Shown here: piece by piece, positions 1-12,100 of the stretch
Position numbering within the stretch: the stretch's first letter is position 1
How the letters are laid out: each line of letters opens with the position of its first letter
Program-made: the position numbers and the translations under genes
IMG/VR virus record: IMGVR_UViG_3300033153_002015
Coordinates: 1 to 20,168 of that record
Strand: one strand, 5' to 3'
Source of the DNA: a virus
Length of the DNA: 20,168 bases
Notes under the pieces: generated by a model
What the model was told of the DNA's origin: nothing
The model's input: the letters and a program-made list of their open reading frames with translations, nothing else
Databases searched by the model: none

Positions 1-326
1 GTGAAGTGACGACGCACCCATTCGTAGATCGCGGCCTGGCCTTTGATGGAGACCTTGTGCCCGCCCCGCGTGCCGGACTCGACGACGCCAGCGTACGGCG
101 CATGGTTGAAGAGGATGACTATCGCACCCTTCTTCTTCACCTTGCGTATTCGCTTCACCTTCCACGCGGCAGCCAGCTCGTGTTGGTCGAACGGTGTCTT
201 GCCCGAGATGTACGTTCGGCCCCTCTCGGCGCTTACTGCAACGGCATGCTGGATGAGCTTCGCCGTCACACGACCGTGTCGCTTCAGCTCGGCCTTGAGC
301 CCTCCTGGTTCGATCGCGATGCCCAT
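1..326 (-). CDS. Partial CDS (start at 326, runs off the left edge): HK97 gp10-like head-tail / tail-completion protein
   Basis: It is absent from the ORF track because it has no stop codon in the window. My own minus-strand translation from ATG 326-324 is MGIAIEPGGLKAELKRHGRVTAKLIQHAVAVSAERGRTYISGKTPFDQHELAAAWKVKRIRKVKKKGAIVILFNHAPYAGVVESGTRGGHKVSIKGQAAIYEWVRRHF, open to position 1. The NHAPYAGVVESGT segment matches the APYA-x3-E-x-GT signature I associate with the HK97 gp10 family. The start overlaps the upstream stop as TGATG. Confidence 0.55.
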   Translation of the reverse strand, partial: MGIAIEPGGLKAELKRHGRVTAKLIQHAVAVSAERGRTYISGKTPFDQHELAAAWKVKRIRKVKKKGAIVILFNHAPYAGVVESGTRGGHKVSIKGQAAIYEWVRRHF

Positions 327-811
327 CAGGTCGACTCCTGACCTGAGCGGAGGAACACGACCCAGCCCATATCCTTCTCGCGATCCACGAACGGAGGCTT
401 GCCGACATTGAAGGTCTTCGTCCGGTTTGCCTGACCGTGCGCCTCTTTGATGCGCCAGAAGAAGCGCTGGTTCTTGCCCATCGACGCGCGCACGCCAATA
501 AGCTCTGCTTCGATGTACGACAGGGACACCTCGCGAAGACGAATCTCCCCGAGCTGATCGATGCCGCACGTTGCAAGCTCGTATCGGTACCCGTCCCAGA
601 TGTCGATGACCGGCTGCGAGGTAATCTCTGTCTCGACAGACGAAACGGATCCCTTGCCAACCACGCCACCCGACCACGTTTCGTGGACGGTGTAGGCGCG
701 ATAGGCGCGCACGCCGAACTCTGTGTGAAGCTCGTCGCGCAGGGAATCGATCACGTCGACAACGAGGCTGTCGACGAGAACATCCGAATCGAGTACGGCA
801 GAACCACCCAT
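326..811 (-). CDS. Hypothetical virion / head-tail joining module protein (161 aa)
   Basis: Intact ORF with ordinary protein-like composition. Its ATG lies 4 nt after the stop of the upstream gene, and its stop overlaps the next start. It sits between a structural protein and the gp10-like gene. I recognise no motif. Confidence 0.65.
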   Translation of the reverse strand: MGGSAVLDSDVLVDSLVVDVIDSLRDELHTEFGVRAYRAYTVHETWSGGVVGKGSVSSVETEITSQPVIDIWDGYRYELATCGIDQLGEIRLREVSLSYIEAELIGVRASMGKNQRFFWRIKEAHGQANRTKTFNVGKPPFVDREKDMGWVVFLRSGQEST

Positions 812-815
812 GGTC

Positions 816-1739
816 TTACGTGATGGTCATGCCCTTGAAGTTCATGATGCGCCAACCGGCCGCGGTCCACACCAGCTCGCCGGCTTCGAGAAGCGCATCG
901 AGGTCAATGCTTGTGCCGTCGGCGAAGTTCGCCGGGGTCAGCGTACCGTCTGGCGTGGTGGCTGCGAGGATGACCACGAACTTCTTGATCTGCCCCTCGT
1001 AGCGACCATCGGCCAGCGTGTACGCCTTCGTGCCGGTGACGGAAATCAGCGAGGTGAGCACGTCCAGGGACAGTGCCCCGCTCGTGACGGTCTCCAGGTC
1101 CACCGGCAGGTTTGCAACCAGCTCCGTGGAGAGACCCCTGTTGATGGTTGCCACCGGCGTGCCCGAGGTGTACGCGGTCGTATTGGCGCGCACGCGAGCC
1201 GCGGCGCCGCGGGCGACGACGACGGAGCCGGCAGCCGTGAGGGGGAGGCCGACGTTGTGCCAGTCGGAACCGGCCGCGCTGAGCGAGACCTGCATCTGCA
1301 CGGTAGCAGTGAAGGTGCCGCTCAATCCGATGACGCACTGTTCGCCGCCATCGAGTGCGGTTGCTGCGCCGGCCGCAACGCTGCTTGCAATCGCGAGCGT
1401 TCCAGACTTGAAGGTGCGCTCCAGTAGGTGCGCCGACAAGGACGAGTCGTGAAGGATTGTTCCGACGGGCGTGCCCGAGGAGTAGCTCGACACCGTTGCA
1501 CGCACGCGACGCGCACGGCCAGCTTCGAGAGTGCGCTGGCCGGTCGCAGTGGTGATGAAGATGTCACCAAGGGAATACCAGGCCGAACCGGAGGTATCCG
1601 GCGACCACTGGAACTGGACGCTGGCGTTATGGGTACCGCTCAGGCCGACTGTGATCGGCGAGCGAGGGGATACGGCTACCGGCGTCGACGACGTGTCGGT
1701 GACGGGGATGCCGAGATCTTCTGATACGTAGCTGGACAT
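816..1739 (-). CDS. Structural protein (307 aa) with two tandem copies of a ~65-aa beta-rich module plus a C-terminal domain
   Basis: SD GGAGAG lies 6 nt upstream of ATG 1739. There is an internal duplication: aa 29-95 ITVGLSGTHNASVQFQWSPDTSGSAWY...RRVRATVSSYSSGTPVGTI versus aa 135-199 CVIGLSGTFTATVQMQVSLSAAGSDWH...ARVRANTTAYTSGTPVATI. It lies in the head/connector gene block. Confidence 0.75.
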   Translation of the reverse strand: MSSYVSEDLGIPVTDTSSTPVAVSPRSPITVGLSGTHNASVQFQWSPDTSGSAWYSLGDIFITTATGQRTLEAGRARRVRATVSSYSSGTPVGTILHDSSLSAHLLERTFKSGTLAIASSVAAGAATALDGGEQCVIGLSGTFTATVQMQVSLSAAGSDWHNVGLPLTAAGSVVVARGAAARVRANTTAYTSGTPVATINRGLSTELVANLPVDLETVTSGALSLDVLTSLISVTGTKAYTLADGRYEGQIKKFVVILAATTPDGTLTPANFADGTSIDLDALLEAGELVWTAAGWRIMNFKGMTIT

Positions 1740-1823
1740 GGTTTGCTCTCCGTTGGTTTAATGTCCGCCCCCCGACGCCGACCAACACTGGAGATGTAGT
1801 ACCAGCGCCGAGGAGAAGACGAA

Positions 1824-2240
1824 TCACTTGCCGACGTAGTTGCCTCCACCAGAGGAACCACCAGGACCAGCGAACGAGCGAATGCGCGCGCCGCCGAACT
1901 GCCCGCCGCTGCGAGTCTCGACGCCAAGCATTCGAGCGAGGTCTTCAACCCAGCGGTCACCTTCAGCCTTCAACTGATTGGTCTCCTGCTGGCGTAGCTC
2001 GATCGAGCCGACTTTGTTTGCCTTCAACCGCGAGTGCGCGCCGCGCAGCTTCGTCTGGATGTCGGAGATGTTCGCGAGGATGCCGTCGTTCGCGAGTAGG
2101 TCGGTGACCTGAAGCTCGTGCTCGGGCTCCGTAGACAGCGCCGACATCGCCTGTTCGAGGCGGCTATCGGACTGGTGGAAGCGGGCCGACCATCCCAGCG
2201 CGCGCCGAACCGCAGCCCTTTGGGTGTCGGTGAGTGCCAC
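1824..2240 (-). CDS. Hypothetical head/connector module protein (138 aa), helical N-terminal part and Gly-rich C-terminus
   Basis: Intact ORF whose ATG lies 3 nt after the upstream stop. The sequence MALTDTQRAAVRRALGW...LKAEGDRWVEDLARMLGV...GGSSGGGNYVGK is protein-like. Function is not recognisable from the sequence. Confidence 0.7.
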   Translation of the reverse strand: MALTDTQRAAVRRALGWSARFHQSDSRLEQAMSALSTEPEHELQVTDLLANDGILANISDIQTKLRGAHSRLKANKVGSIELRQQETNQLKAEGDRWVEDLARMLGVETRSGGQFGGARIRSFAGPGGSSGGGNYVGK

Positions 2241-2243
2241 GAG

Positions 2244-2594
2244 CTACCCCTTGCCCTTACCCTTGCCACTGCCCTTGCCCTTTGCGGGCTTCGGCTCGTC
2301 CGGTACACCGGGCGGCTTCACCGACTTCGACATGGGCTTCGGGGCCGGCTTTGGGGGCGTCGGCTTCGGAGGCGTTGGCTTGACGACGTTCGAGACGTTC
2401 AGCTGCCCTGGCGTGGCCTTCGACTTCGCGACGAATCCAACGCGGTTGAACGCCTTCTCGTAGCAGATCGGGCCGACGCATGACTCGCCTGGCTCACTCG
2501 TGTAAACCGTGGGAGGTCCGCCGGGCGCATTCCCGATCTCCAGTCGCAAAGTTCCCGCGCTCGGATTCAGGTACTTCTGCATGGGGATGCTCAT
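2244..2594 (-). CDS. Small protein (116 aa): ~55-aa N-terminal domain plus a Pro/Lys-rich and Gly/Lys-rich low-complexity tail
   Basis: An AGGAGA motif lies upstream of ATG 2594. The tail reads KPTPPKPTPPKPAPKP...PGVPDEPKPAKGKGSGKGKGKG, encoded by short imperfect tandem DNA repeats at about 2245-2400. Confidence 0.6.
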   Translation of the reverse strand: MSIPMQKYLNPSAGTLRLEIGNAPGGPPTVYTSEPGESCVGPICYEKAFNRVGFVAKSKATPGQLNVSNVVKPTPPKPTPPKPAPKPMSKSVKPPGVPDEPKPAKGKGSGKGKGKG

Positions 2595-2630
2595 CGTGCG
2601 TGGATCTCCTGTGTCGGTGAACGAAAGGGT

Positions 2631-2668
2631 GCGCGAGAGCCCGAGAAGGAAAAACCGGACTCTCGCGC
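2631..2668 (-). terminator. Strong hairpin (13 bp including one G.U) between the 108-aa and 116-aa genes. Candidate partial terminator or attenuator
   Basis: Minus strand: GCGCGAGAGTCCG-GTTTTTCCTTCT-CGGGCTCTCGCGC, followed by ACCCTTTCGTTC, which is only a weak T-run. It starts 14 nt after the TAA at 2682. Confidence 0.4.
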
Positions 2669-2681
2669 GAGGGGGTGTCGC

Positions 2682-3008
2682 TTACTTGAGGGTCTTGTCG
2701 ATGCCGCCGGCCGCCATGACGATGCCGCCAGACGTGGTCGCAGTCTGGTTGATGCGAACCTTCTTGAGCCCAGCCGGAAGCTGGTACCAGGCAACCGCCG
2801 TGAGACCAGCAAGGCTGTTCCCGAAGATGTCGTCCAGTGCAGCGAAGTTCGTCCCGTCGACGCTGCCTTCTACGGTGAAGGTGCCAACGAAGGAGGCGGT
2901 CTCCTCGTAGACATTGACGCAGACCGGATCGAGGTTCTCGACGTTGACCGCCGAGGAAATCTCGACCGCGTCGGTCTCGCTGGTCAGTCCGTACATGTGC
3001 TTTGACAT
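2682..3008 (-). CDS. Putative capsid decoration / auxiliary head protein (108 aa). Carries a third copy of the module repeated in the 307-aa protein
   Basis: SD AGGAGAG lies 7 nt upstream of ATG 3008, immediately downstream of the major capsid gene. FVGTFTVEGSVDGTNFAAL...LKKVRINQTATTSGGIVMA parallels GLSGTFTATVQMQVS...DW...RVRANTTAYTSGTPVATI. Confidence 0.65.
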   Translation of the reverse strand: MSKHMYGLTSETDAVEISSAVNVENLDPVCVNVYEETASFVGTFTVEGSVDGTNFAALDDIFGNSLAGLTAVAWYQLPAGLKKVRINQTATTSGGIVMAAGGIDKTLK

Positions 3009-3075: not shown

Positions 3076-4140
3076 TTACGCAGCGAGGTTGGTGATGTAG
3101 CCGCACGCGTTCGGGCGTTTGACCATGATCTGCGGGTAGCAGTAGAGGGCGAACTTGAACGCGTCGCCCGTGATTGCGAGCGGCTGAATGCGCGCGTAGA
3201 GCTTCGACTTGTTCTTGCCGAACTGCTCTTCGGGGGTACCGGCGAGGCCGATCGTTCCCATGGCGCGGTTCATCACGTCAGGGCTGTCGATGAGCTGACA
3301 GATCTTCACGTGGCGCGAGTTCAACGCGGTGACCTTCTGCACGGGATGCAGAACGTCTTCGATGACCGGGATGCCGTCGAACTCCAGCACCTGGTAGCCA
3401 CCGTCTAGCTTGATGACGGTGCCATCGTTGCGTCGGACGCTGTCGGTGTACCGGCGCTCGGCCTGGTACGCGAGACCGAGCTTTTCGTGCTGGACCGGAT
3501 CGGTGATGAAGATGTCGGGACGCTCACCACTCGCCGAGTAGATCACGCGGCGCAGTTCACGCATAAGCGTGAAGGCGTTCGCCTGGAAGTCTCCAGCTCC
3601 AGCGTCGACCACGTTCCCTTGCCACTGCGCGACACCCGAACGATCGATGCCGGCGTAGATGCCGGTGTCGCCGATGGCGTCAACGGTACCAGCACCGAGG
3701 GATCCGTAGAGCCCGTGCATGTTGTTCGTGGCGCCAGTGCCGGTGTAGATGTCCGCTGCGATGGCGCGCGCGAGACGCTCCACCGAATCACCAAGCTCGT
3801 CAACGAGCAGCGCGGCAAGCTCGGCGGGGTTGCCGGCGGCGCGGGCAGCTGCCATCGCCTTACCAGTGACGCTGAAGGCGTCGTGGTAGGTGCCGTACTG
3901 GAGAACGGCGGCCGACTTGGTGTCGTTGTTGAAGGTTGTGACGTCGGCGCCATCGGAGATGACGGCGGTGGTCGGAGTTGCGGTACCCGTGCGAACGGAC
4001 CACTGAACGTTCTTGCCTGTGCCAGGCGAGATGTCCAGCACCTGAGCGGCGACACAGGAACGGTTGATCTGATTCGCGATCTCATCGAAAAATAGTTCCG
4101 AGAGGGTCGCGTCGATGGTCGAGAATGAAACAACAGCCAT
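3076..4140 (-). CDS. Major capsid protein, HK97-fold, P22-coat-like (354 aa from the ATG at 4140)
   Basis: It lies directly downstream of a scaffold-like gene. ATG 4140 has SD GAGG with a 5-nt spacer (ACGAGGCACGCATG). The GTG at 4203 that opens the longer track ORF has no SD and sits inside a hairpin. By memory the sequence resembles the P22 coat family: ERPDIFITDPVQHEKLG versus P22 YFFNPQDYKKAG, and C-terminal FALYCYPQIMVKRPNACGYI versus P22 IALWYGVNATRPEAIGV. Confidence 0.85.
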   Translation of the reverse strand: MAVVSFSTIDATLSELFFDEIANQINRSCVAAQVLDISPGTGKNVQWSVRTGTATPTTAVISDGADVTTFNNDTKSAAVLQYGTYHDAFSVTGKAMAAARAAGNPAELAALLVDELGDSVERLARAIAADIYTGTGATNNMHGLYGSLGAGTVDAIGDTGIYAGIDRSGVAQWQGNVVDAGAGDFQANAFTLMRELRRVIYSASGERPDIFITDPVQHEKLGLAYQAERRYTDSVRRNDGTVIKLDGGYQVLEFDGIPVIEDVLHPVQKVTALNSRHVKICQLIDSPDVMNRAMGTIGLAGTPEEQFGKNKSKLYARIQPLAITGDAFKFALYCYPQIMVKRPNACGYITNLAA

Positions 4141-4393
4141 GCGTGCCTCGTAAATGTTGGTGGGTTGCAGGGTCCGCGCTGTTCGCTGCGCTGGCGTGCT
4201 CACCGAGGTGAGTTATGCAACGTGCGTGTTGCCTCCGTGCAACCCAGTCGAGGCCGGGTGTACGCAAACCATCCGCCCCCTTTCCGTTCGTGTCAAGTTA
4301 ACGAACGCAGCCGGCCGCACCACTTCACGAAGAAGCGATGCGGCCGATGATGCCGTAGGTATGGCTTGCTGTACCGATTCGGCGTCTTAGCCG
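4141..4393 (-). promoter_or_regulatory. Structured ~250-nt leader between the scaffold and capsid genes, containing four hairpins
   Basis: There are perfect or near-perfect inverted repeats (plus-strand coordinates). 4313-4345: GGCCGCA...TGCGGCC with an inner CTTC/GAAG stem. 4285-4307: CGTTCGT-9 nt-ACGAACG, with a TTGACA in the loop on the minus strand. 4228-4243: GTTGC-6 nt-GCAAC. 4199-4212: CTCAC-CGAG-GTGAG. No convincing ORF is present. Confidence 0.4.
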
Positions 4394-5152
4394 CTACTCG
4401 ATGGCGCCGAACAATTGTTTCCCGAGATGAGTCATCAGCTCTCCCCTGGACGGCTTCTCTCCCGGGCGCCTGGCTGGCGGGCGTCCACCCTTGTTGCCGG
4501 AACCGGATACGTCGACCGGCGGGAGGAACACTTTGCCCTCATCGGTACCGAGGTACTCGACGATGCCCTCGTCGATAGGCAGAAGCTCTGGCCCCCACTC
4601 GCGCTTGAAGCGCATGCAGATGTTCCCGTCCTCGTCGCGCTCGATGAGCTTCTGGTCGAGATACAGGTACGCGGAAGCTGCGCCGAGGCGAGCGTCATCG
4701 ACGCCGCCCTTCCGCAGTGCGTTCGTGAGCGAGCTGCGCTCCTGTTGCACTACGGCCTTCTGCTTCTCCGCTGCTGCTGCGTTCTCGGTGGCTTCGAGCT
4801 TCTCGCGGATAACCTTCTGCTCTGTCTTCATCTTCGCCAGCTCGATCTCGGCAGCGCTCGGCGGCTTGTCGCCTGGTGCCGGTGTCTCCGGTGCCGCTGG
4901 TGTCGGCGGCTGGAAGCTCTTCATGGCCTCGCCGATACCACTGGAGATCATGCCCGAGAAGTCGAGCCGCTTCAGGTGCCCAGTCACCGCGCTGTTCACC
5001 ATGTTCGCGAGCTTCTTCTCGTCGATAGCTGGCGCCGCGGGCGGGTCGCCACCGTCGCCACCACCGGCTGGCGGGTCGTCATCCGCAGAGCAGACCAGGC
5101 CGGACGTCGGCACCATCACGTTGAACGCATTCCGTAGATTCTCGAACTTCAT
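4394..5152 (-). CDS. Scaffolding protein (252 aa)
   Basis: It occupies the slot immediately upstream of the capsid gene. SD GGGGAGAAG lies before ATG 5152. The central region is charged and looks coiled-coil (AEIELAKMKTEQKVIREKLEATENAAAAEKQKAVVQQERSSL), with Pro/Ala-rich linkers and a basic C-terminus. The assignment rests on position and composition, not on a motif. Confidence 0.65.
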   Translation of the reverse strand: MKFENLRNAFNVMVPTSGLVCSADDDPPAGGGDGGDPPAAPAIDEKKLANMVNSAVTGHLKRLDFSGMISSGIGEAMKSFQPPTPAAPETPAPGDKPPSAAEIELAKMKTEQKVIREKLEATENAAAAEKQKAVVQQERSSLTNALRKGGVDDARLGAASAYLYLDQKLIERDEDGNICMRFKREWGPELLPIDEGIVEYLGTDEGKVFLPPVDVSGSGNKGGRPPARRPGEKPSRGELMTHLGKQLFGAIE

Positions 5153-5193: not shown

Positions 5194-5418
5194 TTAACTT
5201 GGTCTATAGCTGAGCAGTTCGTCAAGGTACGTCTTCTCTGGCGTCATATCGATGTCCCAGTCTTCGGCTAGAATCTCCAGCCCGACCGGGTCGTCTTGAC
5301 TGCGCCAGATGACGATCCACTCGTCTTGCGTTAGCGGTCTCTTCAGCGACTTGTAGTACCGCTCTGCTGCATCCAGGTCGTTGCGTGGCATGTCCACGAT
5401 GTTCAGATTCTTCGCCAT
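5194..5418 (-). CDS. Small acidic protein (74 aa), translationally coupled to the giant MuF protein. Candidate cognate inhibitor or immunity protein
   Basis: Its ATG overlaps the giant gene's TAA by 1 nt (TAATG at 5420-5416). By my count it has 16 D/E against 9 K/R. Sequence: MAKNLNIVDMPRNDLDAAERYYKSLKRPLTQDEWIVIWRSQDDPVGLEILAEDWDIDMTPEKTYLDELLSYRPS. I recognise no family. Confidence 0.6.
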   Translation of the reverse strand: MAKNLNIVDMPRNDLDAAERYYKSLKRPLTQDEWIVIWRSQDDPVGLEILAEDWDIDMTPEKTYLDELLSYRPS

Positions 5419-8400
5419 TATGGTCGGCTCTTCTTCTTGGCGGACGCCAGTGCATCGCGCATTGCTTTTCGCTTATCCTTCGGGAACAGGACGATGAACG
5501 CGTCGGTGAATGCGTCGGCGCCGTCGTGCCTGTCCGTCGACTTCTTCATGTCACGGGAGACCCTTGTCAGGATCTCGAAGGCGTCGTCGCGCGACACATC
5601 ATGCGATGCAGCAATGCCGTCAGTGAGGGTATCGATCCAGGTGCCATACGATCCACCGTTTCGCTGCATGCTGCGCGCTACCCCGTAGTACCTGTGCATG
5701 ATGTCGCGCGCGGAGACCTCGGTGACGACCTCCTCGACGATCTTGCCGTGTCCGCGATACGCCTTCGTGCCCATGTTGCCGTGCCCATGAACCGCTTCGT
5801 GCACGATGGTGCGCATGCCCTGCGAGTTGTCGTACAGCTCTTTGCCTGGATGTTCTTTTATCTTGTCGAGCGATGCGGTCATCTTCTTCAGCAGCTTCAG
5901 CGTCTCCTCACCCTTCCTGTGGTACTCCCTGCTGAAGACGGCACGCCTCTTCTTGTCCTCGGCTTCTGTGAAGTTCGGGTGGTTCTTAAATGCATCCAAC
6001 AGCTTCGTCTGGTTGCGGTGCCATCCGGTGCGTTCCTTGACCGCTGCACGGTGCGCATCGATGTCGACACGTGCTCGCACGCTGAGCTTGCCGAACGCCT
6101 TGAGATCTGCGCGCGACTTCTTCGCCAGAGCTGGCTTGGCGAACTGCTTCGTGAACTTCTTCGCCTTCTTGATTTGCGTATCGCGAATATGGATTCGACC
6201 GTTCCATGCGTGCGTACCCAGCGCACCGCGCGGGTTCTTCTGAATCATGATGTCGTCGACGTCTTGCGGTCGCTTGTGCAAGCCATCGAGGTCGAGGACG
6301 TCGTCGATGCTCTGACGTACCAGAGTCCAGTCGCCACTCTCGAAGCCTGCGCGCGTGTTCGTTGCGCGCGACGCAACGAGGGCAACAGACTCGGCTCGCT
6401 CCTTGGGAGTCATTGCCGCGGCGACGTCTTTCATCTTCTGCCGCGCTTCCTTCAGTAGCTTCCTGTTCTTTGGCGACTCGGCGATCTTGTTCAGATCGGC
6501 GATGTCAGATTCAAGGATCTTCTTCCGCGCCTGGTCTTTCCACCTCCACCTCTTCTTGTACCTGATCTTGTCCAGCTCTTTGTCGAGTGGCTTCAGCTCG
6601 GCATACAGTCGATCGAAGAGCTTCTTGAAGTCGGAGGATACCTTGACCATCTCCTTCTTCCGCTTTGCGGGCGTGTCGAGGTCGACCGGTCGCTTCATCT
6701 TCTTCCCGGCGGGCTTGCCGGGCACCTTGTCGTTCTGCTCCTTGGTGGCGTCCGGGTGGATAGTGATCTCAGGGGCTGGCTTGCCCTTCTTCTTCAGGCG
6801 GTACCCGCGGATACGCTCGCGCGTGAGCCGTGCCTTCCGCTCACTCTTGCTCTCGCCAGGCAGCCACACCTTGCCGAAGCTCGTGCCCTTAGGAAACACC
6901 TTCGCCTCGACGACGCTGGTGTCGGGCTCGGGCTCTTCCTTCTTCGGCTTCACCTTCGTGTGGCGACGCCAGAAGCTGTCGATGTCCTTCTTGCTTGTGC
7001 CGTCGTATAGCAGCACCGCCATGCCTGTGGTCGCATCAGTGACCCAGAATTGAGGCTTCTGTTTGCTGTCGTCTACCCAGGCACGGTGAACCGTGAACTC
7101 GGCGCCCGTGAGCTTGCGCCATACGGTGATACCGTCCGCCGGTACCCGCGACCTGAACTTCACGGGCTTCTCGTGCTCCTTGTCGGCGTGCTCGTATTCG
7201 CTCCAGAACGCTGCGACGTCTAAGCTGCTAGTTGCGTCGTAGGTGCGTACGCGTTTGCCACGTTCGCCGATGAGGGAGAAGAGGGGCCTCCCTCCTTCAC
7301 GGTCGTAGTCGTGATCTACCCTGCGCCTCTTCTTCGTCCCCTTGCGCTGAACCATAAGCCCGCTATCTGGGACGCCCGGCACGCTGTCGACGGCCTCCGG
7401 GTACAACTTCGTCGGCGTGTGCTTGAACGGAAGATAGGTGCTCCAGAAGCGAGACAGCGCCGCGATGTCGTCACCCCTCCATCGAACAGATACGGCCTTC
7501 GCGCCGTCAGCTGGTCGCAGTACGAACCATGGCCCCTTCTTCTTCTCCTCGTCATCCCATCCGCGCGTGACGACATACTCGCGGGCGAACCTCTGCCCCC
7601 ACACTGACTGGCCATCGGTCGGCGCCGTGGAGTGGAACGAGTCAGTCGCTGGCTCGATCGGGTTGTATGTTTTCCAGAACGACTTGACGTCCAGCTTGTC
7701 CGTAGCCAGCCAGCTACCGTACACGCGAACGCCTCCGTCGATTGGCTCGACTGCGAAGACTGGAAATTGCTCTTCGGCATCGGAGAAGCTGTGCCGCACA
7801 ACATACTTGCTGCCTGTGATCTTGTTCCAGACGATCTGGTTTTTCTTCGGAGCACTCGCTAGCGGCTTGCCTCCGACGGGCTTCGGTGGCGGCTTGACCT
7901 CGCTCTTCGAGTAGTGGCTCCAGAACATGGCGACGCCGCTCTTCGTGTCACCACGCAGCCGCTCTGCCTGCGAAGGGCCGCCCGACACGACTAGCCACTT
8001 GCCGCCGTACACCTTCGCGCGTTTCACCACGAGCTTCTTGCCGGTGTCCCTCACCCATACCGTAGATCCGTCCTCCGGTGCGTTGGCATCCCACTCGGTC
8101 TCTTCCTTCTCGGGCTTCTTCTCGGTCTTCTCCTTCGAGTACCCCTTCCAGAACATCAGGACTGCATGCGCAGCTGAGCCGCGGTACTTCTGTGACTCGC
8201 CGCCCCTCTCGTTCTTCGCGAAGAACCACAATCTGCCGTCGGCGTCGGTCTCGCGAACGACGGTGAACTTCGAGCCGTAGCGCCTCCCCCACACGGTCAT
8301 GCCGTTAGTGGGTGCACCCTTCGCCCACTTCTTGGGTGTGCGGCTGAACAGTGACCAGAATGTTCTAATATCGTCTGGGGCGTCGCCCTCGTAGAACCTC

Positions 8401-9959
8401 GTTGTCGCACCGCCGTCGACGCGCAGTGCTTGAAATATCGGATTCTGCTTCTTGGCGTCGCTGTACTGGTGGAGGATTTCCCACTTCTTCCCGGTCTTCT
8501 TCGACCAGACGAAGCTACCCTTCTTTGGCGCGTTCGCGTGGAACGGGATCGGCTTGAGCTTGTCCGGCTTGGTCTTCGTGTGGCGATCCCAAAACAGTTC
8601 GACCTGTAGCTTGTTGTCGCCTGGGTACTTGCCGACCTGGCGTGTCTTGTCGCGAACGACGATCCAGATCCTGCCGTCGTCTTCGGTCAAGCGCTTCGTT
8701 GTGCGGCGCTCGCCGGTCTTGACATCCCATACGACCTGACCATCGAACGGCGCACCCGCAACCCACTCTCGCTTCTTCTTCGGCGGCGGCTTCGGTGGCG
8801 CGGCTACCTGTTCCTTGTCGGTTGCATGAGGGTGAATGGTGTCATCGGGTATCAGTAGCCCCTTCTTCTTCGCGCGATACTTCCTTATGCGCTCCTTGGT
8901 CATCCGCGCCTTGCGTGCCGCCTTGTCTTCGCCCGGCAGCCAGACCTTTCCGAAGTTGGCGCCGCTTCGCTTGTGCGGCGGCTTGTCGAGGTCGGGCTTA
9001 ATCCTTGGCGCCTTCGGTAGCAGGTTGCCTGGATGCGGCTTACCTCGGTCGCCGGATTCTGGCGGCGCACCTTCGGCGTCCATCTTCCAATCCTCGTGCC
9101 ACGCCACGATCACACATCGGCAATTGGGATGGGCCGGCGGTTCGATGTGCCGCGACGTGTACGACTTCTTGGCCCCTCGCCATTTGCCTACGAACTCCTC
9201 GTCAACCGCCCTCACCTGACCATCGAGGCTCTTGCACTGCGGGCACCGCCGCCAGTCGTACGCAGCATCCCACCGGTTCTTTATGCCGGGGTCGACCTTC
9301 GCGATCTCTCTGATGCCCTCCTTGTGATAGACGTTGTATGCGTGCATCACCTCGGTGCGTGCCACCATCGACGCGCGCCGCGAGAACTGCCCGAACACGC
9401 CCGGCATGTTCCGCTTCAGCCGTTCACCTGTTTCGCGAATGGTCTCGCCCTTCACGCGCCCGACCGCAAGCTCTTGAACGAGCCGCTTGCGGATGTCGCC
9501 AGAGTAACGCCGAGCTGAGCGGGGGAAGCGCTTCAGTACCAAGCTGTCGCCGCGCGCGAGCACGATCGCCTCGTCCATGGCGACCGAGTTCATCTCGCCG
9601 TCGAACAGATGCCCGAACCGAAGCATCTCGTCTTCGACGTTCTTCATCGACAGAGACGCAGCGTCCTTCGCGCTCAGGTTCAACCCTTCGACAAGCGCTG
9701 GCTCTGTCTCCTTCAGTGTGTTGAGAGCAGAGCGAACCTGTTGCAGCGCGCTACGGAGCTTCTGCGTGGTGAACCTCTTGTCCCCGTCCTCTTTGTCGAG
9801 CCACTTCTTCAAGTCCTTGAGAAGCTCGGCACGGGCCTGCGCGAGGATGGGTGCCACCTTCCTGGCTACCGGCGTAGGAAGCCCGTCCACGGCTGCCGCT
9901 GACCGTTGCAGGACAGCCTGGTACTCCCTGCGCTGCTTGCCGGTGATTTTGCGCGCCAT
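5418..9959 (-). CDS. Giant (1513 aa) MuF / SPP1 gp7-family head morphogenesis protein. It is fused to an 8-unit repeat array and a C-terminal HExxH (zincin-like) domain, i.e. a polyvalent virion protein
   Basis: The N-terminal ~290 aa carry the MuF signature: RRASMVARTEVMHAYNVY...NRWDAAYDWRRCPQCKSLDGQ...IEPPAHPNCRCVIV. Eight ~70-aa repeats span aa 398-1005. HEAVHGHG is at aa 1387-1394 (HEAVH = nt 5787-5801). The gene sits in the canonical portal-to-MuF-to-scaffold slot. Confidence 0.9.
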   Translation of the reverse strand: MARKITGKQRREYQAVLQRSAAAVDGLPTPVARKVAPILAQARAELLKDLKKWLDKEDGDKRFTTQKLRSALQQVRSALNTLKETEPALVEGLNLSAKDAASLSMKNVEDEMLRFGHLFDGEMNSVAMDEAIVLARGDSLVLKRFPRSARRYSGDIRKRLVQELAVGRVKGETIRETGERLKRNMPGVFGQFSRRASMVARTEVMHAYNVYHKEGIREIAKVDPGIKNRWDAAYDWRRCPQCKSLDGQVRAVDEEFVGKWRGAKKSYTSRHIEPPAHPNCRCVIVAWHEDWKMDAEGAPPESGDRGKPHPGNLLPKAPRIKPDLDKPPHKRSGANFGKVWLPGEDKAARKARMTKERIRKYRAKKKGLLIPDDTIHPHATDKEQVAAPPKPPPKKKREWVAGAPFDGQVVWDVKTGERRTTKRLTEDDGRIWIVVRDKTRQVGKYPGDNKLQVELFWDRHTKTKPDKLKPIPFHANAPKKGSFVWSKKTGKKWEILHQYSDAKKQNPIFQALRVDGGATTRFYEGDAPDDIRTFWSLFSRTPKKWAKGAPTNGMTVWGRRYGSKFTVVRETDADGRLWFFAKNERGGESQKYRGSAAHAVLMFWKGYSKEKTEKKPEKEETEWDANAPEDGSTVWVRDTGKKLVVKRAKVYGGKWLVVSGGPSQAERLRGDTKSGVAMFWSHYSKSEVKPPPKPVGGKPLASAPKKNQIVWNKITGSKYVVRHSFSDAEEQFPVFAVEPIDGGVRVYGSWLATDKLDVKSFWKTYNPIEPATDSFHSTAPTDGQSVWGQRFAREYVVTRGWDDEEKKKGPWFVLRPADGAKAVSVRWRGDDIAALSRFWSTYLPFKHTPTKLYPEAVDSVPGVPDSGLMVQRKGTKKRRRVDHDYDREGGRPLFSLIGERGKRVRTYDATSSLDVAAFWSEYEHADKEHEKPVKFRSRVPADGITVWRKLTGAEFTVHRAWVDDSKQKPQFWVTDATTGMAVLLYDGTSKKDIDSFWRRHTKVKPKKEEPEPDTSVVEAKVFPKGTSFGKVWLPGESKSERKARLTRERIRGYRLKKKGKPAPEITIHPDATKEQNDKVPGKPAGKKMKRPVDLDTPAKRKKEMVKVSSDFKKLFDRLYAELKPLDKELDKIRYKKRWRWKDQARKKILESDIADLNKIAESPKNRKLLKEARQKMKDVAAAMTPKERAESVALVASRATNTRAGFESGDWTLVRQSIDDVLDLDGLHKRPQDVDDIMIQKNPRGALGTHAWNGRIHIRDTQIKKAKKFTKQFAKPALAKKSRADLKAFGKLSVRARVDIDAHRAAVKERTGWHRNQTKLLDAFKNHPNFTEAEDKKRRAVFSREYHRKGEETLKLLKKMTASLDKIKEHPGKELYDNSQGMRTIVHEAVHGHGNMGTKAYRGHGKIVEEVVTEVSARDIMHRYYGVARSMQRNGGSYGTWIDTLTDGIAASHDVSRDDAFEILTRVSRDMKKSTDRHDGADAFTDAFIVLFPKDKRKAMRDALASAKKKSRP
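6945..8768 (-). repeat. Protein-level tandem array: eight diverged ~67-73-aa repeats inside the giant MuF protein
   Basis: Approximate units are 8768-8565, 8549-8331, 8330-8124, 8099-7899, 7868-7653, 7640-7422, 7394-7182 and 7160-6945. The shared pattern is AP-x-DG-xx-VW...TG..(F/Y/W).V.(R/H)...(W/F).(V/F)...(Y/R).G...(V/I)..FW..(Y/H). Examples are APFDGQVVWDVKTGE...VELFWDRH, APTNGMTVWGRRYGSKFTVV...VLMFWKGY and VPADGITVWRKLTGAEFTVH...IDSFWRRH. Confidence 0.85.
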
Positions 9960-9962
9960 AGG

Positions 9963-10283
9963 TCAGTCGATCGGGATGAACTCTCCGCTCTCCTCGTCGA
10001 ATGCGTACCGGCCAGGAGGTAGATCGATCGATGCGTCGTCGACGGTGAGTTCGAGCTGCATCACGGTGATGGGGATGTGGATCATCATCTGGCTCGGGTT
10101 GTCGGGGTCGAACGTCACATCGATATCCGGCGTTTCCTCGACACCTGCCTCTTCCAGCCAACCAGACAACGACTCCATCATCCGCTGCGCGACCAAGTCA
10201 GGCGTGACGACGGTACCGACCAAGTCGGCGAGACCTTCGCGCATTTGCTTTGCCAGGCGCGCAACTGCAATCTCGTCGCTCAC
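9963..10283 (-). CDS. Small, strongly acidic protein (106 aa) between the portal and MuF genes
   Basis: Its GTG start overlaps the portal stop as GTGA, and its stop lies 3 nt before the MuF ATG. It is rich in D/E (..EEAGVEETPDIDVTFDPDNP..DDASIDLPPGRYAFDEESGEFIPID). Function is unknown. Confidence 0.65.
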   Translation of the reverse strand: MSDEIAVARLAKQMREGLADLVGTVVTPDLVAQRMMESLSGWLEEAGVEETPDIDVTFDPDNPSQMMIHIPITVMQLELTVDDASIDLPPGRYAFDEESGEFIPID

Positions 10284-12100
10284 TTCTTCCTCGTGTCGAC
10301 CATCTTCTTGCGGCCAACTTCAGGCTTCTCTGGTGGAGCCGGGGGCTTGTCGTCGTCCTCGTCCTCTTCTTCGAGGTCCTCTTCTTCGATGTCACCAGCT
10401 CCAGGGTGTACTTCGATGCGGTCCATCATTGGCGAGAACTGGTCGTCAGTGATGTTCATCATCAGCTCGGTCTCGATGTCGTCGAGGTCGTCTGCTGTTG
10501 CGTTATCCCCGAGTGTGACCTTCGCCAGCGCGAACTTGAACAGGCGCTGAAACGTGGCCGATGGAATCGAGATGCCTTCGAGGGTGACCCCCTTCTCGAT
10601 CTCATCTGACGCTTGCGTCTCATCGAACTTGTCGCAGCCAGCGGCGTTCCACTGCGGAGCAAGGTCGGCTTCGCCGCGCACACACGAGACCATCCCGTAC
10701 ACCTTCTCGGCGAACGAGCGAAGCAGAACGCCCAGCGCATCGAGGACCGTGGTCTTCGACGACTTGTCTTGCTTCTTCGACTCGCCGCTTCGCCCCACGG
10801 TCGCCGCGTTCGTGTCGACAGCCAGGGACATCTGATGCGTTACGCGATGCATTTCGTTCTTCGTGTCGACACAGCTCGCGCGCGCTTCGCTGAACGGCCC
10901 CGGGTCAGGGCCGACGAACTCGGCGCGATCCTGGTGACCTCGCTGCTGGACGTACCCCTGCCCCCTTGCCTGCGTCGTCGCGCGTTCCGGGTTCTCCTGG
11001 TTCGCGGATACGCCAGGCACCTGCGTTCCGCCCATGGACGTCTCTTCTGGTCCGTGGAATTCATACAGCTCTGGCAGTAGCGATTGCAGCTCGGCCCAAG
11101 CCAGGCCGCTGCGCTTGTTGAAGTGCTCGCGCGCCAAGCCTTCGAGCTTCGCCATGGCCCACAAGCCTTCGGGCACAGTGAGGCGAACCAGCGGTACCTT
11201 GCCCGTGGAATACGTGCCCTCATTGACCAGCCGCACAAGATCTGTATCCTTGGGCTTCTCGTCGGCCTTGTGGCGCAGCTCGTATCGAGACCAGCCATTC
11301 GTGTCGTAGTAGGTCCACCGCTGCGTGTGCACGTCGCGCGACGAGAACAGGTTCTCGCGCTGGGCTTCAACCGTGTGAACGAGCGCCCATTGCAGGGTGT
11401 TCGATTCATCCTCCTCCCAGTCGATGACGCTCTCCGGTTCGATGCGTACGGCGTAGGCGTCGAGTGCACCGCTCATCTTCTGGTCGAGCCTATCTGCGTA
11501 TACCGGCTCTTCGTTTCCGAGGCCGCGCATGTCTGGAAGGTCGACGAGTACCCATGCTGTTCGACAGATGAGCGAGTTCAGCATGCAGTCGCGCAGCTGT
11601 TCGTTGAACGGGGTCACCTCTGAATCGACGTGCGACGTGTCCTCGTGGAAGGCGTCGTACCATGGAGGGTATGAGCCCTTCTCCTTCGTCGAGTCGTTCG
11701 TGTCCATGGTGATGGGTGTGTTGCACAGCATCGACACGATGTCGTCGATGATCTCCCCGGCGTATGGCGTGTAAAAAGCGCGGTTGCATCGCTCTTCGTA
11801 GACGCTCGGGTGCTCGTTGCGGTGAGGGGGAAAGACCTCCTTCATCACAACAGGATCGTCCATTAGCATCTTGCCGCCGGAATACAGCGCGCGCAACCGA
11901 CGCCAGTACCCAGCGGCGTAGTCCGGGTGCGTCACCTTCAGCAGTCGATACGGGATGGCGCCAGGCCCGCCCTCGGTTTCGGTCTGCGTGCCCTGGGGGA
12001 AATCTGCGTGCCGTGACTCGGCGCGTTTGATGGTGCGGTGTCGAGCTTCATTGTCGGAGATGCCCTCTCCGCTGCCCTGCATTGAATCGTTGCCTGCCAT
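10280..12100 (-). CDS. Portal protein (606 aa)
   Basis: Its size and its position between TerL and MuF fit a portal. The N-terminal segment YEERCNRAFYTPYAGEIIDDIVSML resembles the conserved (Y)xxRxxRAxYxNxxxxxV opening of DUF4055-type portals, as I remember it. It has an acidic C-terminal tail (EEEDLEEEDEDDD). Confidence 0.8.
   Translation of the reverse strand: MAGNDSMQGSGEGISDNEARHRTIKRAESRHADFPQGTQTETEGGPGAIPYRLLKVTHPDYAAGYWRRLRALYSGGKMLMDDPVVMKEVFPPHRNEHPSVYEERCNRAFYTPYAGEIIDDIVSMLCNTPITMDTNDSTKEKGSYPPWYDAFHEDTSHVDSEVTPFNEQLRDCMLNSLICRTAWVLVDLPDMRGLGNEEPVYADRLDQKMSGALDAYAVRIEPESVIDWEEDESNTLQWALVHTVEAQRENLFSSRDVHTQRWTYYDTNGWSRYELRHKADEKPKDTDLVRLVNEGTYSTGKVPLVRLTVPEGLWAMAKLEGLAREHFNKRSGLAWAELQSLLPELYEFHGPEETSMGGTQVPGVSANQENPERATTQARGQGYVQQRGHQDRAEFVGPDPGPFSEARASCVDTKNEMHRVTHQMSLAVDTNAATVGRSGESKKQDKSSKTTVLDALGVLLRSFAEKVYGMVSCVRGEADLAPQWNAAGCDKFDETQASDEIEKGVTLEGISIPSATFQRLFKFALAKVTLGDNATADDLDDIETELMMNITDDQFSPMMDRIEVHPGAGDIEEEDLEEEDEDDDKPPAPPEKPEVGRKKMVDTRKK

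Follow-up and report, generated by a model that had tools for sequence, protein, structure and literature searches.

A MuF-headed phage protein of 1513 residues with an eight-copy repeat array and a widely shared C-terminal HExxH domain

A single gene with a MuF anchor, basic modules and a repeat array

The virus record IMGVR_UViG_3300033153_002015 of IMG/VR comprises 20,168 nucleotides, which represent an entire JGI contig and are referred to below as the window. Its minus strand carries a gene (5418..9959) for a protein of 1513 amino acids (~172 kDa, net charge +110, pI ~10) that combines an N-terminal head-morphogenesis domain of the MuF type with a long basic middle region and a C-terminal HExxH domain. 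This open reading frame (ORF) had been proposed by an initial annotation made from the sequence alone and was found at exactly these coordinates, with its ATG at 9959 and its TAA at 5420-5418; all features of the fusion gene named in the following are on the minus strand. The GC content at third codon positions is 0.75-0.82 in every 150-codon block of the ORF and is the same in the genes of the portal, of TerL and of the major capsid protein (MCP), indicating that one reading frame and one codon bias run through the whole gene. The start codon lies 3 nt past the stop of a 106-aa ORF, and the stop codon overlaps the ATG of a 74-aa ORF (TAATG). Such tight spacing with both neighbors is as expected of an operon.

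The MuF (SPP1 gp7-like) domain takes up aa 1-295 (9075..9959). Phage_Mu_F (PF04233) is the only Pfam match on the fusion protein (aa 164-284, 59.2 bits, cut-off 29.6), and the PHROG head-morphogenesis and minor-head families (PHROG 241, 4728, and others), with E-values down to 1e-17, cover aa 17-307 only. The characteristic PPAHPNCRC motif is located at aa 274-282. The MuF signature is hence limited to the first ~290 residues, as had been suggested initially. It is followed by a linker that is Pro/Lys-rich in composition (aa 296-332, 8964..9074) and by the first of two Lys/Arg-rich (K/R) modules of 48 aa each, which were both correctly placed on either side of the repeats by the initial annotation. 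Copy A (aa 333-380, 8820..8963) has a net charge of +8 and reads FGKVWLPGE...RKAR..RERIRKYRAKKKG, and copy B (aa 1025-1072, 6744..6887) is 60% identical to it at the protein level (BLASTP 2e-24) and 70% identical at the DNA level. Copy B is succeeded by a Lys-rich, probably helical stretch (aa 1078-1232, 6264..6728) and that is partly conserved in the relatives P0004-P0007, P0012, P0013, P0019, and P0020.

The region between the two K/R modules is occupied by eight repeats (aa 399-1005, 6945..8765), each predicted to form a small beta-barrel, that were delineated by alignments, a hidden Markov model (HMM), and AlphaFold. They have a core of ~67 aa and a period of ~75 aa, in agreement with the eight tandem repeats of ~70 aa noted originally. 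The repeat HMM detected 8 domains with i-E values of 1e-24 to 1e-27 each, namely, at aa 399-465, 473-542, 545-611, 623-687, 701-770, 775-847, 861-926, and 935-1005, most of which carry a net charge of +2 to +7. Their pairwise identity is 24-46%, without a pattern of orthology, and Tandem Repeats Finder identified no DNA tandem array in the repeat region, so that the array is not an assembly duplication. The repeats are old, diverged duplications and not a product of the assembler. A model that AlphaFold generated from an alignment of 10 repeats (pLDDT 97.7, pTM 0.83) shows four strands followed by a helix. This arrangement within ~67 aa resembles Tudor, chromo, KOW, and SH3-like barrels, which were the best hits of a Foldseek search of the PDB, none of them significant (E 0.3-0.4, TM score <=0.51), but the repeat differs from these folds in that no aromatic cage or binding motif can be assigned to it. 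Uncharacterized phage proteins were the best hits in BFVD, and these were not significant either (E >=0.1, TM score <=0.58).

The repeat array, which the initial annotation had not recognized, is likewise without a hit in Pfam, PHROGs, NCBIfam, and the PDB sequences. No relative outside a small subfamily, described below, was retrieved by a word-indexed profile search with the repeat. An exhaustive phmmer search with aa 330-1513 as query against 1.84 billion cluster representatives (E <=1e-3) returned repeat matches in this subfamily only, and HMMs of the repeat and the K/R module detected nothing beyond it in 115 proteins and 92 fetched loci. The repeat family was thus seen in three proteins only (the window protein, P0002, and P0032) and represents a new family at the sequence level, whose shape, as far as the model can tell, is that of a generic small barrel.

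The initial annotation had itself raised the issue of a joining artefact. The ORF might be a chimeric assembly, might unite separate genes by way of a frameshift, or might contain a duplication introduced by the assembler, and it is indeed represented by only one metagenomic contig and by a protein cluster with one member. However, the codon bias is uniform across the ORF, its start and stop are closely coupled to the adjacent genes, the repeats are far from identical, reaching no more than 80% in short DNA stretches, and the same module order was found in the independent assemblies of P0002, P0011, and P0032. An artefact is strongly argued against by the existence of independent metagenome proteins that have the MuF domain and the HExxH end with varying middles, and its likelihood is practically negligible. 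It was confirmed that 5418-9959 is a single intact gene for a genuine minor head protein and not a frameshift or assembly fusion.

The conserved HExxH end and the relatives of the fusion protein

The C-terminal, gluzincin-like HExxH domain (aa 1233-1513, 5421..6263) was defined by motifs and family alignments. The HEAVH sequence reported by the initial annotation is present at aa 1387-1391 and is followed by EEVVTE (aa 1409-1414), R1418, and a GSY motif (Y1437), whereas the N-terminal part of the domain contains the hairpin motif GTHAWNGRIHI (aa 1248-1258). The phmmer search mentioned above resulted in 113 matches, essentially all of which are on aa 1360-1505, with 8 reaching back to ~aa 1130. 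HExxH is kept in 113/113 of these sequences, and the domain is C-terminal in ~109 of them. In the family alignments, the HExxH, an EE pair located 17-18 residues past the second His, an E four residues further on, and the Tyr are invariant, and the Arg is nearly so (98%), giving the consensus G.H.W.G.I ... rTlVHExlHGxSP....aYrGxGxvvEEVTTEvaAR ... GSY. Gluzincins such as thermolysin and the M1-type enzymes are characterized by an HExxH motif, a downstream Glu in an ExxxD/E helix, and a Tyr that aids catalysis. Since the conserved HExxH, downstream Glu, and Tyr fit this known pattern, the residues of the domain appear to be those of an active zinc metallopeptidase.

The segment that connects the GxHxWxGxI hairpin to the HExxH helix (aa ~1270-1372, nt 5844-6152 in the window) differs greatly in length from one relative to another. 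P0002, L002, and L003 have a short version of it, and in the window protein and many relatives it comprises at least ~100 aa and is helical; the domain seems to tolerate insertions at this point.

That this domain had not been recognized by the initial annotation is in line with its absence from Pfam, PHROGs, NCBIfam, and the PDB sequences. Pfam searches of separate segments of the fusion at E-values up to 10 gave only noise beyond MuF, and the HExxH domain matched no toxin or peptidase family in this database. Searches of PHROGs and NCBIfam with 47 HExxH cores also returned noise only, and nothing relevant to the domain was found among the PDB sequences, either with the single sequence or with two profiles. 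Among 50,697 GenBank phages, tblastn with the fusion protein identified matches to the MuF domain only, and tblastn with two other members of the HExxH family identified none. Ten HExxH clusters that were sampled are all metagenomic and mostly singletons. The domain therefore shares with gluzincins the Glu 17-18 residues past HExxH in an ExxxE/D-like helix motif and a conserved Tyr further on, but differs from them in having no detectable homology to a solved structure or a Pfam peptidase, so that the likeness is one of motifs alone.

The close subfamily of the window protein is formed by P0002, P0011, and P0032, whose MuF domains are 49-57% identical to that of the window protein and which have the HExxH end in common with it. 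They differ in what lies between. As compared to the two K/R modules and eight repeats in the 1513 aa of the window protein, P0002 (925 aa) has two K/R modules and two repeats, P0011, together with P0114 and P0115 (810-817 aa), has two K/R modules and no repeats, and P0032 (725 aa) has no K/R module and a single repeat, which was detected by the repeat HMM (E 2e-13) even though it had not been included in the model. The locus of P0002, L001, which originates from SRR14699982, is syntenic with the window, in the order portal, small ORFs, fusion, small ORF, scaffold, and MCP. The modules that make up the middle region behave as movable units, gained and lost freely. The idea that the K/R modules are mere cleavage sites was judged unlikely; since P0011 carries two of them with nothing in between, they are probably functional units.

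Similar variation is seen in the wider family. A MuF domain was detected by Pfam in 46 of the 74 full-length relatives with an HExxH domain, and further architectures are MuF+ART+HExxH (P0037), NUDIX+2H+GNAT+HExxH (P0072), NUDIX+2H+HExxH (P0105), portal+HExxH (P0057), and a MuF protein with two HExxH domains (P0086). Recurrence of the architecture, which the initial annotation had suggested examining, thus takes the form of an anchor and an HExxH end that surround a varying middle in independent assemblies. The alignments and domain assignments point to a recurring plan of a capsid anchor, a variable cargo, and a constant C-terminal putative zincin, in which the cargo of the window protein consists of the K/R modules and the repeats.

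Inteins were also encountered in this family. They interrupt the MuF domain in P0029 and P0066, and the Pfam model Intein_splicing was matched by 3 of the 74 HExxH-family proteins. A scan of metagenomes with a DNA pattern of the subfamily MuF yielded one true relative, which is truncated and interrupted by an intein. At L090 (Ga0310813_10199695, 197-1639, plus strand), a MuF gene of the close subfamily is split by a Hint/intein-like insertion immediately behind the HPNC of HPNCRC. The zinc-ribbon-like motif of MuF appears to be an intein insertion site.

Further scans addressed the distribution of the family. In IMG/VR, the subfamily MuF retrieved 80 MuF loci, none of which has repeats or K/R modules. 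A hand-made DNA pattern for HExxH...EE..TE..AR identified four contigs of metagenome-assembled genomes (MAGs) in 185,579 species-representative genomes, of which two belong to Polyangiaceae and one to Gammaproteobacteria, with one being unclassified; a scan of genome contigs with the peptide pattern VEEVTTE gave no confirmed locus. In L005, a minus-strand ORF of a Polyangiaceae MAG (DASTPP010000195.1), the HExxH domain is internal and is followed by a long poly-proline linker and ~300 aa. MuF is the only Pfam match of this protein, and its ~300-aa C-terminal region had no match at E <=0.001.

Head module and neighboring genes

The fusion gene forms part of a head module that is transcribed entirely from the minus strand, in the order ParB-N/DNA methylase fusion, 182-aa ORF, TerL, 129-aa ORF, portal, 106-aa ORF, and fusion, followed by the 74-aa ORF, a 252-aa scaffold-like ORF, and the MCP. 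The slot from portal via MuF and scaffold to coat that had been assigned to the gene was therefore recovered. TerL (12506-14020, minus strand) was identified by phrog_38 (1.7e-70), and the portal protein (10280..12100, minus strand), which is the presumed docking partner of MuF, by phrog_145 (1.7e-25); family HMMs describe this portal as weakly SPP1-like. The scaffold-like protein of 252 aa (4394-5152, minus strand) has homologs in L001 and L002, which are encoded there by scaffold-like ORFs as well. The MCP (3076-4203, minus strand) matches SU10_MCP just above the threshold (24.9 bits, cut-off 24.1), phrog_9953, and, weakly, the HK97-type Phage_capsid model, and did not match the P22 coat family in Pfam or PHROGs. 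The description of the module as P22-like in the initial annotation is consequently not supported, as the MCP is of the SU10_MCP/HK97 type according to these models.

A capsid maturation protease had not been noticed in the module, and none was detected between portal and MCP by Pfam or PHROGs. Neither the ORFs of the head module nor the C-terminal domain of the fusion matched models of prohead proteases (S78, S78_2, U35, Mu-like I, and ClpP-like), although this approach did detect such proteases in L003 and L006. This raises the question, left open by the initial annotation, of whether the HExxH domain is itself the capsid maturation or scaffold-removing protease, carried into the procapsid by MuF. 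Such a role would explain the missing prohead protease, the domain would be rightly located inside the procapsid, and HMMs likewise identified no protease in the downstream small ORFs and the scaffold-like ORF of L001, L002, and L007. However, canonical prohead proteases are encoded directly downstream of the MuF-HExxH gene in L003 (Peptidase_S78_2, E 4.7e-30) and L006 (Mu-like_Pro, E 2e-15), and the same MuF clade contains MuF-only proteins (L011, L014, and L015). The HExxH domain is hence, by these gene contents, an optional addition that does not in general stand in for a maturation protease. In addition, it is found behind enzymatic cargo, ART and NUDIX being examples, which points to an effector context, and systems that combine a scaffold with a coat protein and do without a protease, such as those of P22 and SPP1, are common. 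A maturation role is thus improbable.

The remainder of the window offers little information on the type of phage. A megablast of the whole window against the GenBank phages gave no match. The GenBank record nearest in its portal (27%) and its MCP (29%) belongs to a metagenome-assembled phage that encodes a tail sheath, but the tail type cannot be read from the window, because the five ORFs downstream of the MCP (326-3008, minus strand; 108, 116, 138, 307, and 161 aa) match no Pfam or PHROG family. Just upstream of the terminase genes, a ParB N-terminal domain is fused to an N6/N4 DNA methylase (14610-15884, minus strand; phrog_498, E 6e-105), and an ORF for an HNH endonuclease is located at 16046-16471. 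Two adjacent tRNA genes (17539-17689, minus strand) both exceed the Rfam tRNA threshold (~47 bits). The first is a tRNA-Leu(AAG), and the second was read by ARAGORN as having the anticodon TTA, corresponding to an ochre (UAA) suppressor; the register of its anticodon arm is ambiguous, with a G at position 33 in the ARAGORN register and a Leu-UAA with two stem mismatches as the alternative. Of the stop codons in the window, TAA is used most often (by 9 of 19 genes, those of the fusion, MCP, and TerL among them), and the fusion protein would become just 4 residues longer if its TAA were read through by the possible suppressor.

A proposed plan of anchor, cargo and C-terminal zincin

Taken together, we read the fusion as a minor head protein that follows a plan of anchor, cargo, and C-terminal zincin, and assign a probability of roughly 55% to this reading as a whole. 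Its starting point is the similarity to SPP1 gp7 and the MuF family (PF04233), which extends to aa 1-295 at a score above the Pfam cut-off and to the position of the gene next to that of the portal and upstream of those of the scaffold and MCP. The portal brings a few copies of gp7 into the interior of the procapsid, and gp7 helps infection to get started (PMC6316719). In contrast to gp7 and Mu gpF, which have a few hundred residues, the window protein continues for ~1200 residues after MuF, and it does not contain the C-terminal (PBECR/Ct_MAD) domain of Mu gpF.

Based on homology and on the portal-adjacent gene, MuF would dock on the portal, so that a few copies of the protein would become enclosed in the procapsid. 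The basic middle, in which two K/R modules bracket eight small beta-barrels like beads on a string, with 0, 1, 2, or 8 of them in the relatives, would then most likely contact nucleic acid, namely, the end of the packaged DNA, or serve as an extended tether. The C-terminal domain would act as a gluzincin-type metallopeptidase, with HExxH providing two zinc ligands and the catalytic base, the Glu of EExxxE 17-18 residues downstream as the predicted third zinc ligand, and the conserved R and Y in proximity. Since cargos as different as ART, NUDIX, 2H, and GNAT are capped by this domain in relatives, the peptidase would most likely process the polyprotein and free the cargo from the anchor, either while still in the head or once ejected into the host. 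As a secondary possibility, its targets may be host proteins.

The notion of an anchor plus cargo, as in polyvalent proteins, had been put forward by the initial annotation and fits well with the finding that the HExxH domain caps MuF+ART, NUDIX+2H+GNAT, and portal fusions in relatives. Metallopeptidases (MPTases) of the zincin type were described as the main hub of polyvalent proteins, for which autoprocessing was proposed (Iyer et al. 2017, PMC5512222). The window protein resembles these proteins by its gene in a virion module, its MuF anchor, its HExxH with downstream Glu, and its modular, variable content, and the conserved His in the strand before the active-site helix (GxxGxH) is reminiscent of one clade of phage-type MPTases. 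That clade, which is widespread, has a His at the end of strand 2 and, three residues after HExxH, an Asp, the latter of which the window family lacks (G-x-[SG]-P, consensus HExxHGxSP). A further difference is that the cargo is a repeat array and that only one of the four module types of the window protein is a predicted enzyme, whereas the relatives that have this C-terminal domain in common with it clearly qualify as polyvalent. LPD domains were not found in the window protein.

A second comparison is that with MuF polymorphic toxins, in which the peptidase would be a toxin directed at non-immune bacteria and the small ORF behind the fusion gene would encode the immunity protein. A metallopeptidase domain is carried by 20% of the MuF toxins, and behind most of them lies a gene for a proposed immunity protein (Jamet et al. 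2017, PMC5576092). Such toxins share with the window protein the MuF N terminus with a C-terminal extension that is predicted to be delivered with the DNA, as well as the small ORF after the gene. This 74-aa acidic ORF (5194..5418, minus strand), whose ATG overlaps the stop of the fusion and whose belonging to the system is uncertain, has a counterpart at the same place in L001, a non-homologous acidic ORF of 78 aa (7163-7399, plus strand), and variability of this kind is seen in immunity genes. However, these two small ORFs are similar neither to each other nor to any family, and the window ORF may encode a chaperone or inhibitor of the very basic fusion or a partner that resembles an immunity protein, or may be unrelated to it. 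The HExxH domain matches no Pfam model of polymorphic toxins and is none of the known toxin domains that recur in other toxin families. It forms a conserved end that stays constant and is not one of many alternative tips, and in the window protein it is separated from the anchor by a long repeat array. There is, furthermore, no sign of lysogeny within the 20-kb window. A toxin is, in our view, quite unlikely. An assignment of the C-terminal domain to Ct_MAD, as defined by Jamet et al., was rejected; Ct_MAD corresponds to COG2369 and the Mu gpF C terminus, and the domain in question has an HExxH core.

Alternatively, the fusion may be an ejection protein, the array and helical regions of which form a tether or conduit in the envelope while the peptidase aids passage through the wall. 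Large head-internal proteins have been proposed to act in this manner in podoviruses, and a precedent is gp47 of phi24B, a polyvalent protein of 2811 aa with a metallopeptidase domain that is abundant in virions and was proposed to be a trans-periplasmic conduit (bioRxiv 10.64898/2026.04.10.717836). We estimate that eight domains of ~2.5-3 nm would span roughly a periplasm. On the other hand, 0, 1, or 2 repeats suffice in close relatives, indicating that no fixed length is needed, and Pfam searches revealed no transmembrane or lytic (lysozyme, M23, or NlpC) domain. To our knowledge, HExxH gluzincins are not typical peptidoglycan peptidases. The tail sheath gene of the nearest relative of portal and MCP also argues against this explanation, which we consider unlikely.

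Several observations weigh against the proposed plan of anchor, cargo, and zincin. All support for it is computational. The AlphaFold model of the C-terminal domain, based on an alignment of 3 sequences, reached a pLDDT of only 55.7, and its Foldseek matches were meaningless helical bundles; the putative zincin fold is read from motifs only. Alignment by hhalign to the MPTase region of the N4 vRNAP (aa 2130-2448), a region that Iyer et al. name but that is itself recognized by no Pfam MPTase model, covered only 16 columns around HExxH with a probability of 26%. As for the cargo, the repeat has no significant similarity to any DNA-binding fold (Foldseek E >0.1, TM score 0.35-0.56), and a kinship with Sso7d was dismissed after a null result with hhalign. 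Bulk condensation of DNA is also implausible, as even 12 copies would, by simple arithmetic, neutralize only ~1% of the charge on the phosphates of a ~50-kb genome.

MuF-anchored cargo, polyvalent proteins, and MuF toxins are already known. What is new is a cargo that consists of an eight-copy repeat family and a K/R module and, as judged from the searches described above, an HExxH end that belongs to a sizeable family that is missing from the searched domain libraries and that closes many anchor-cargo proteins. A more far-reaching version of the proposal is that the repeat founds a new family of nucleic-acid-binding barrels that is loaded into the capsid via MuF, in tunable copy numbers, to hold or protect the DNA end that enters the cell first, and that the gluzincin is a release protease that is widespread, processes its own polypeptide, and sets free whatever cargo lies between it and the anchor. 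We regard this combination as doubtful.

MuF-anchored cargo is a known route by which phages inject proteins, and its rules are so far poorly defined. The HExxH domain occurs in more than 100 protein clusters and consistently ends the polypeptide after a variable cargo, so that the idea of polyvalent proteins processing themselves can be tested directly on a small domain, and both the repeat and the HExxH domain are candidates for new family definitions. If both parts of the more far-reaching proposal were true, tailed phages would possess a cassette for protein delivery that is general and programmable.

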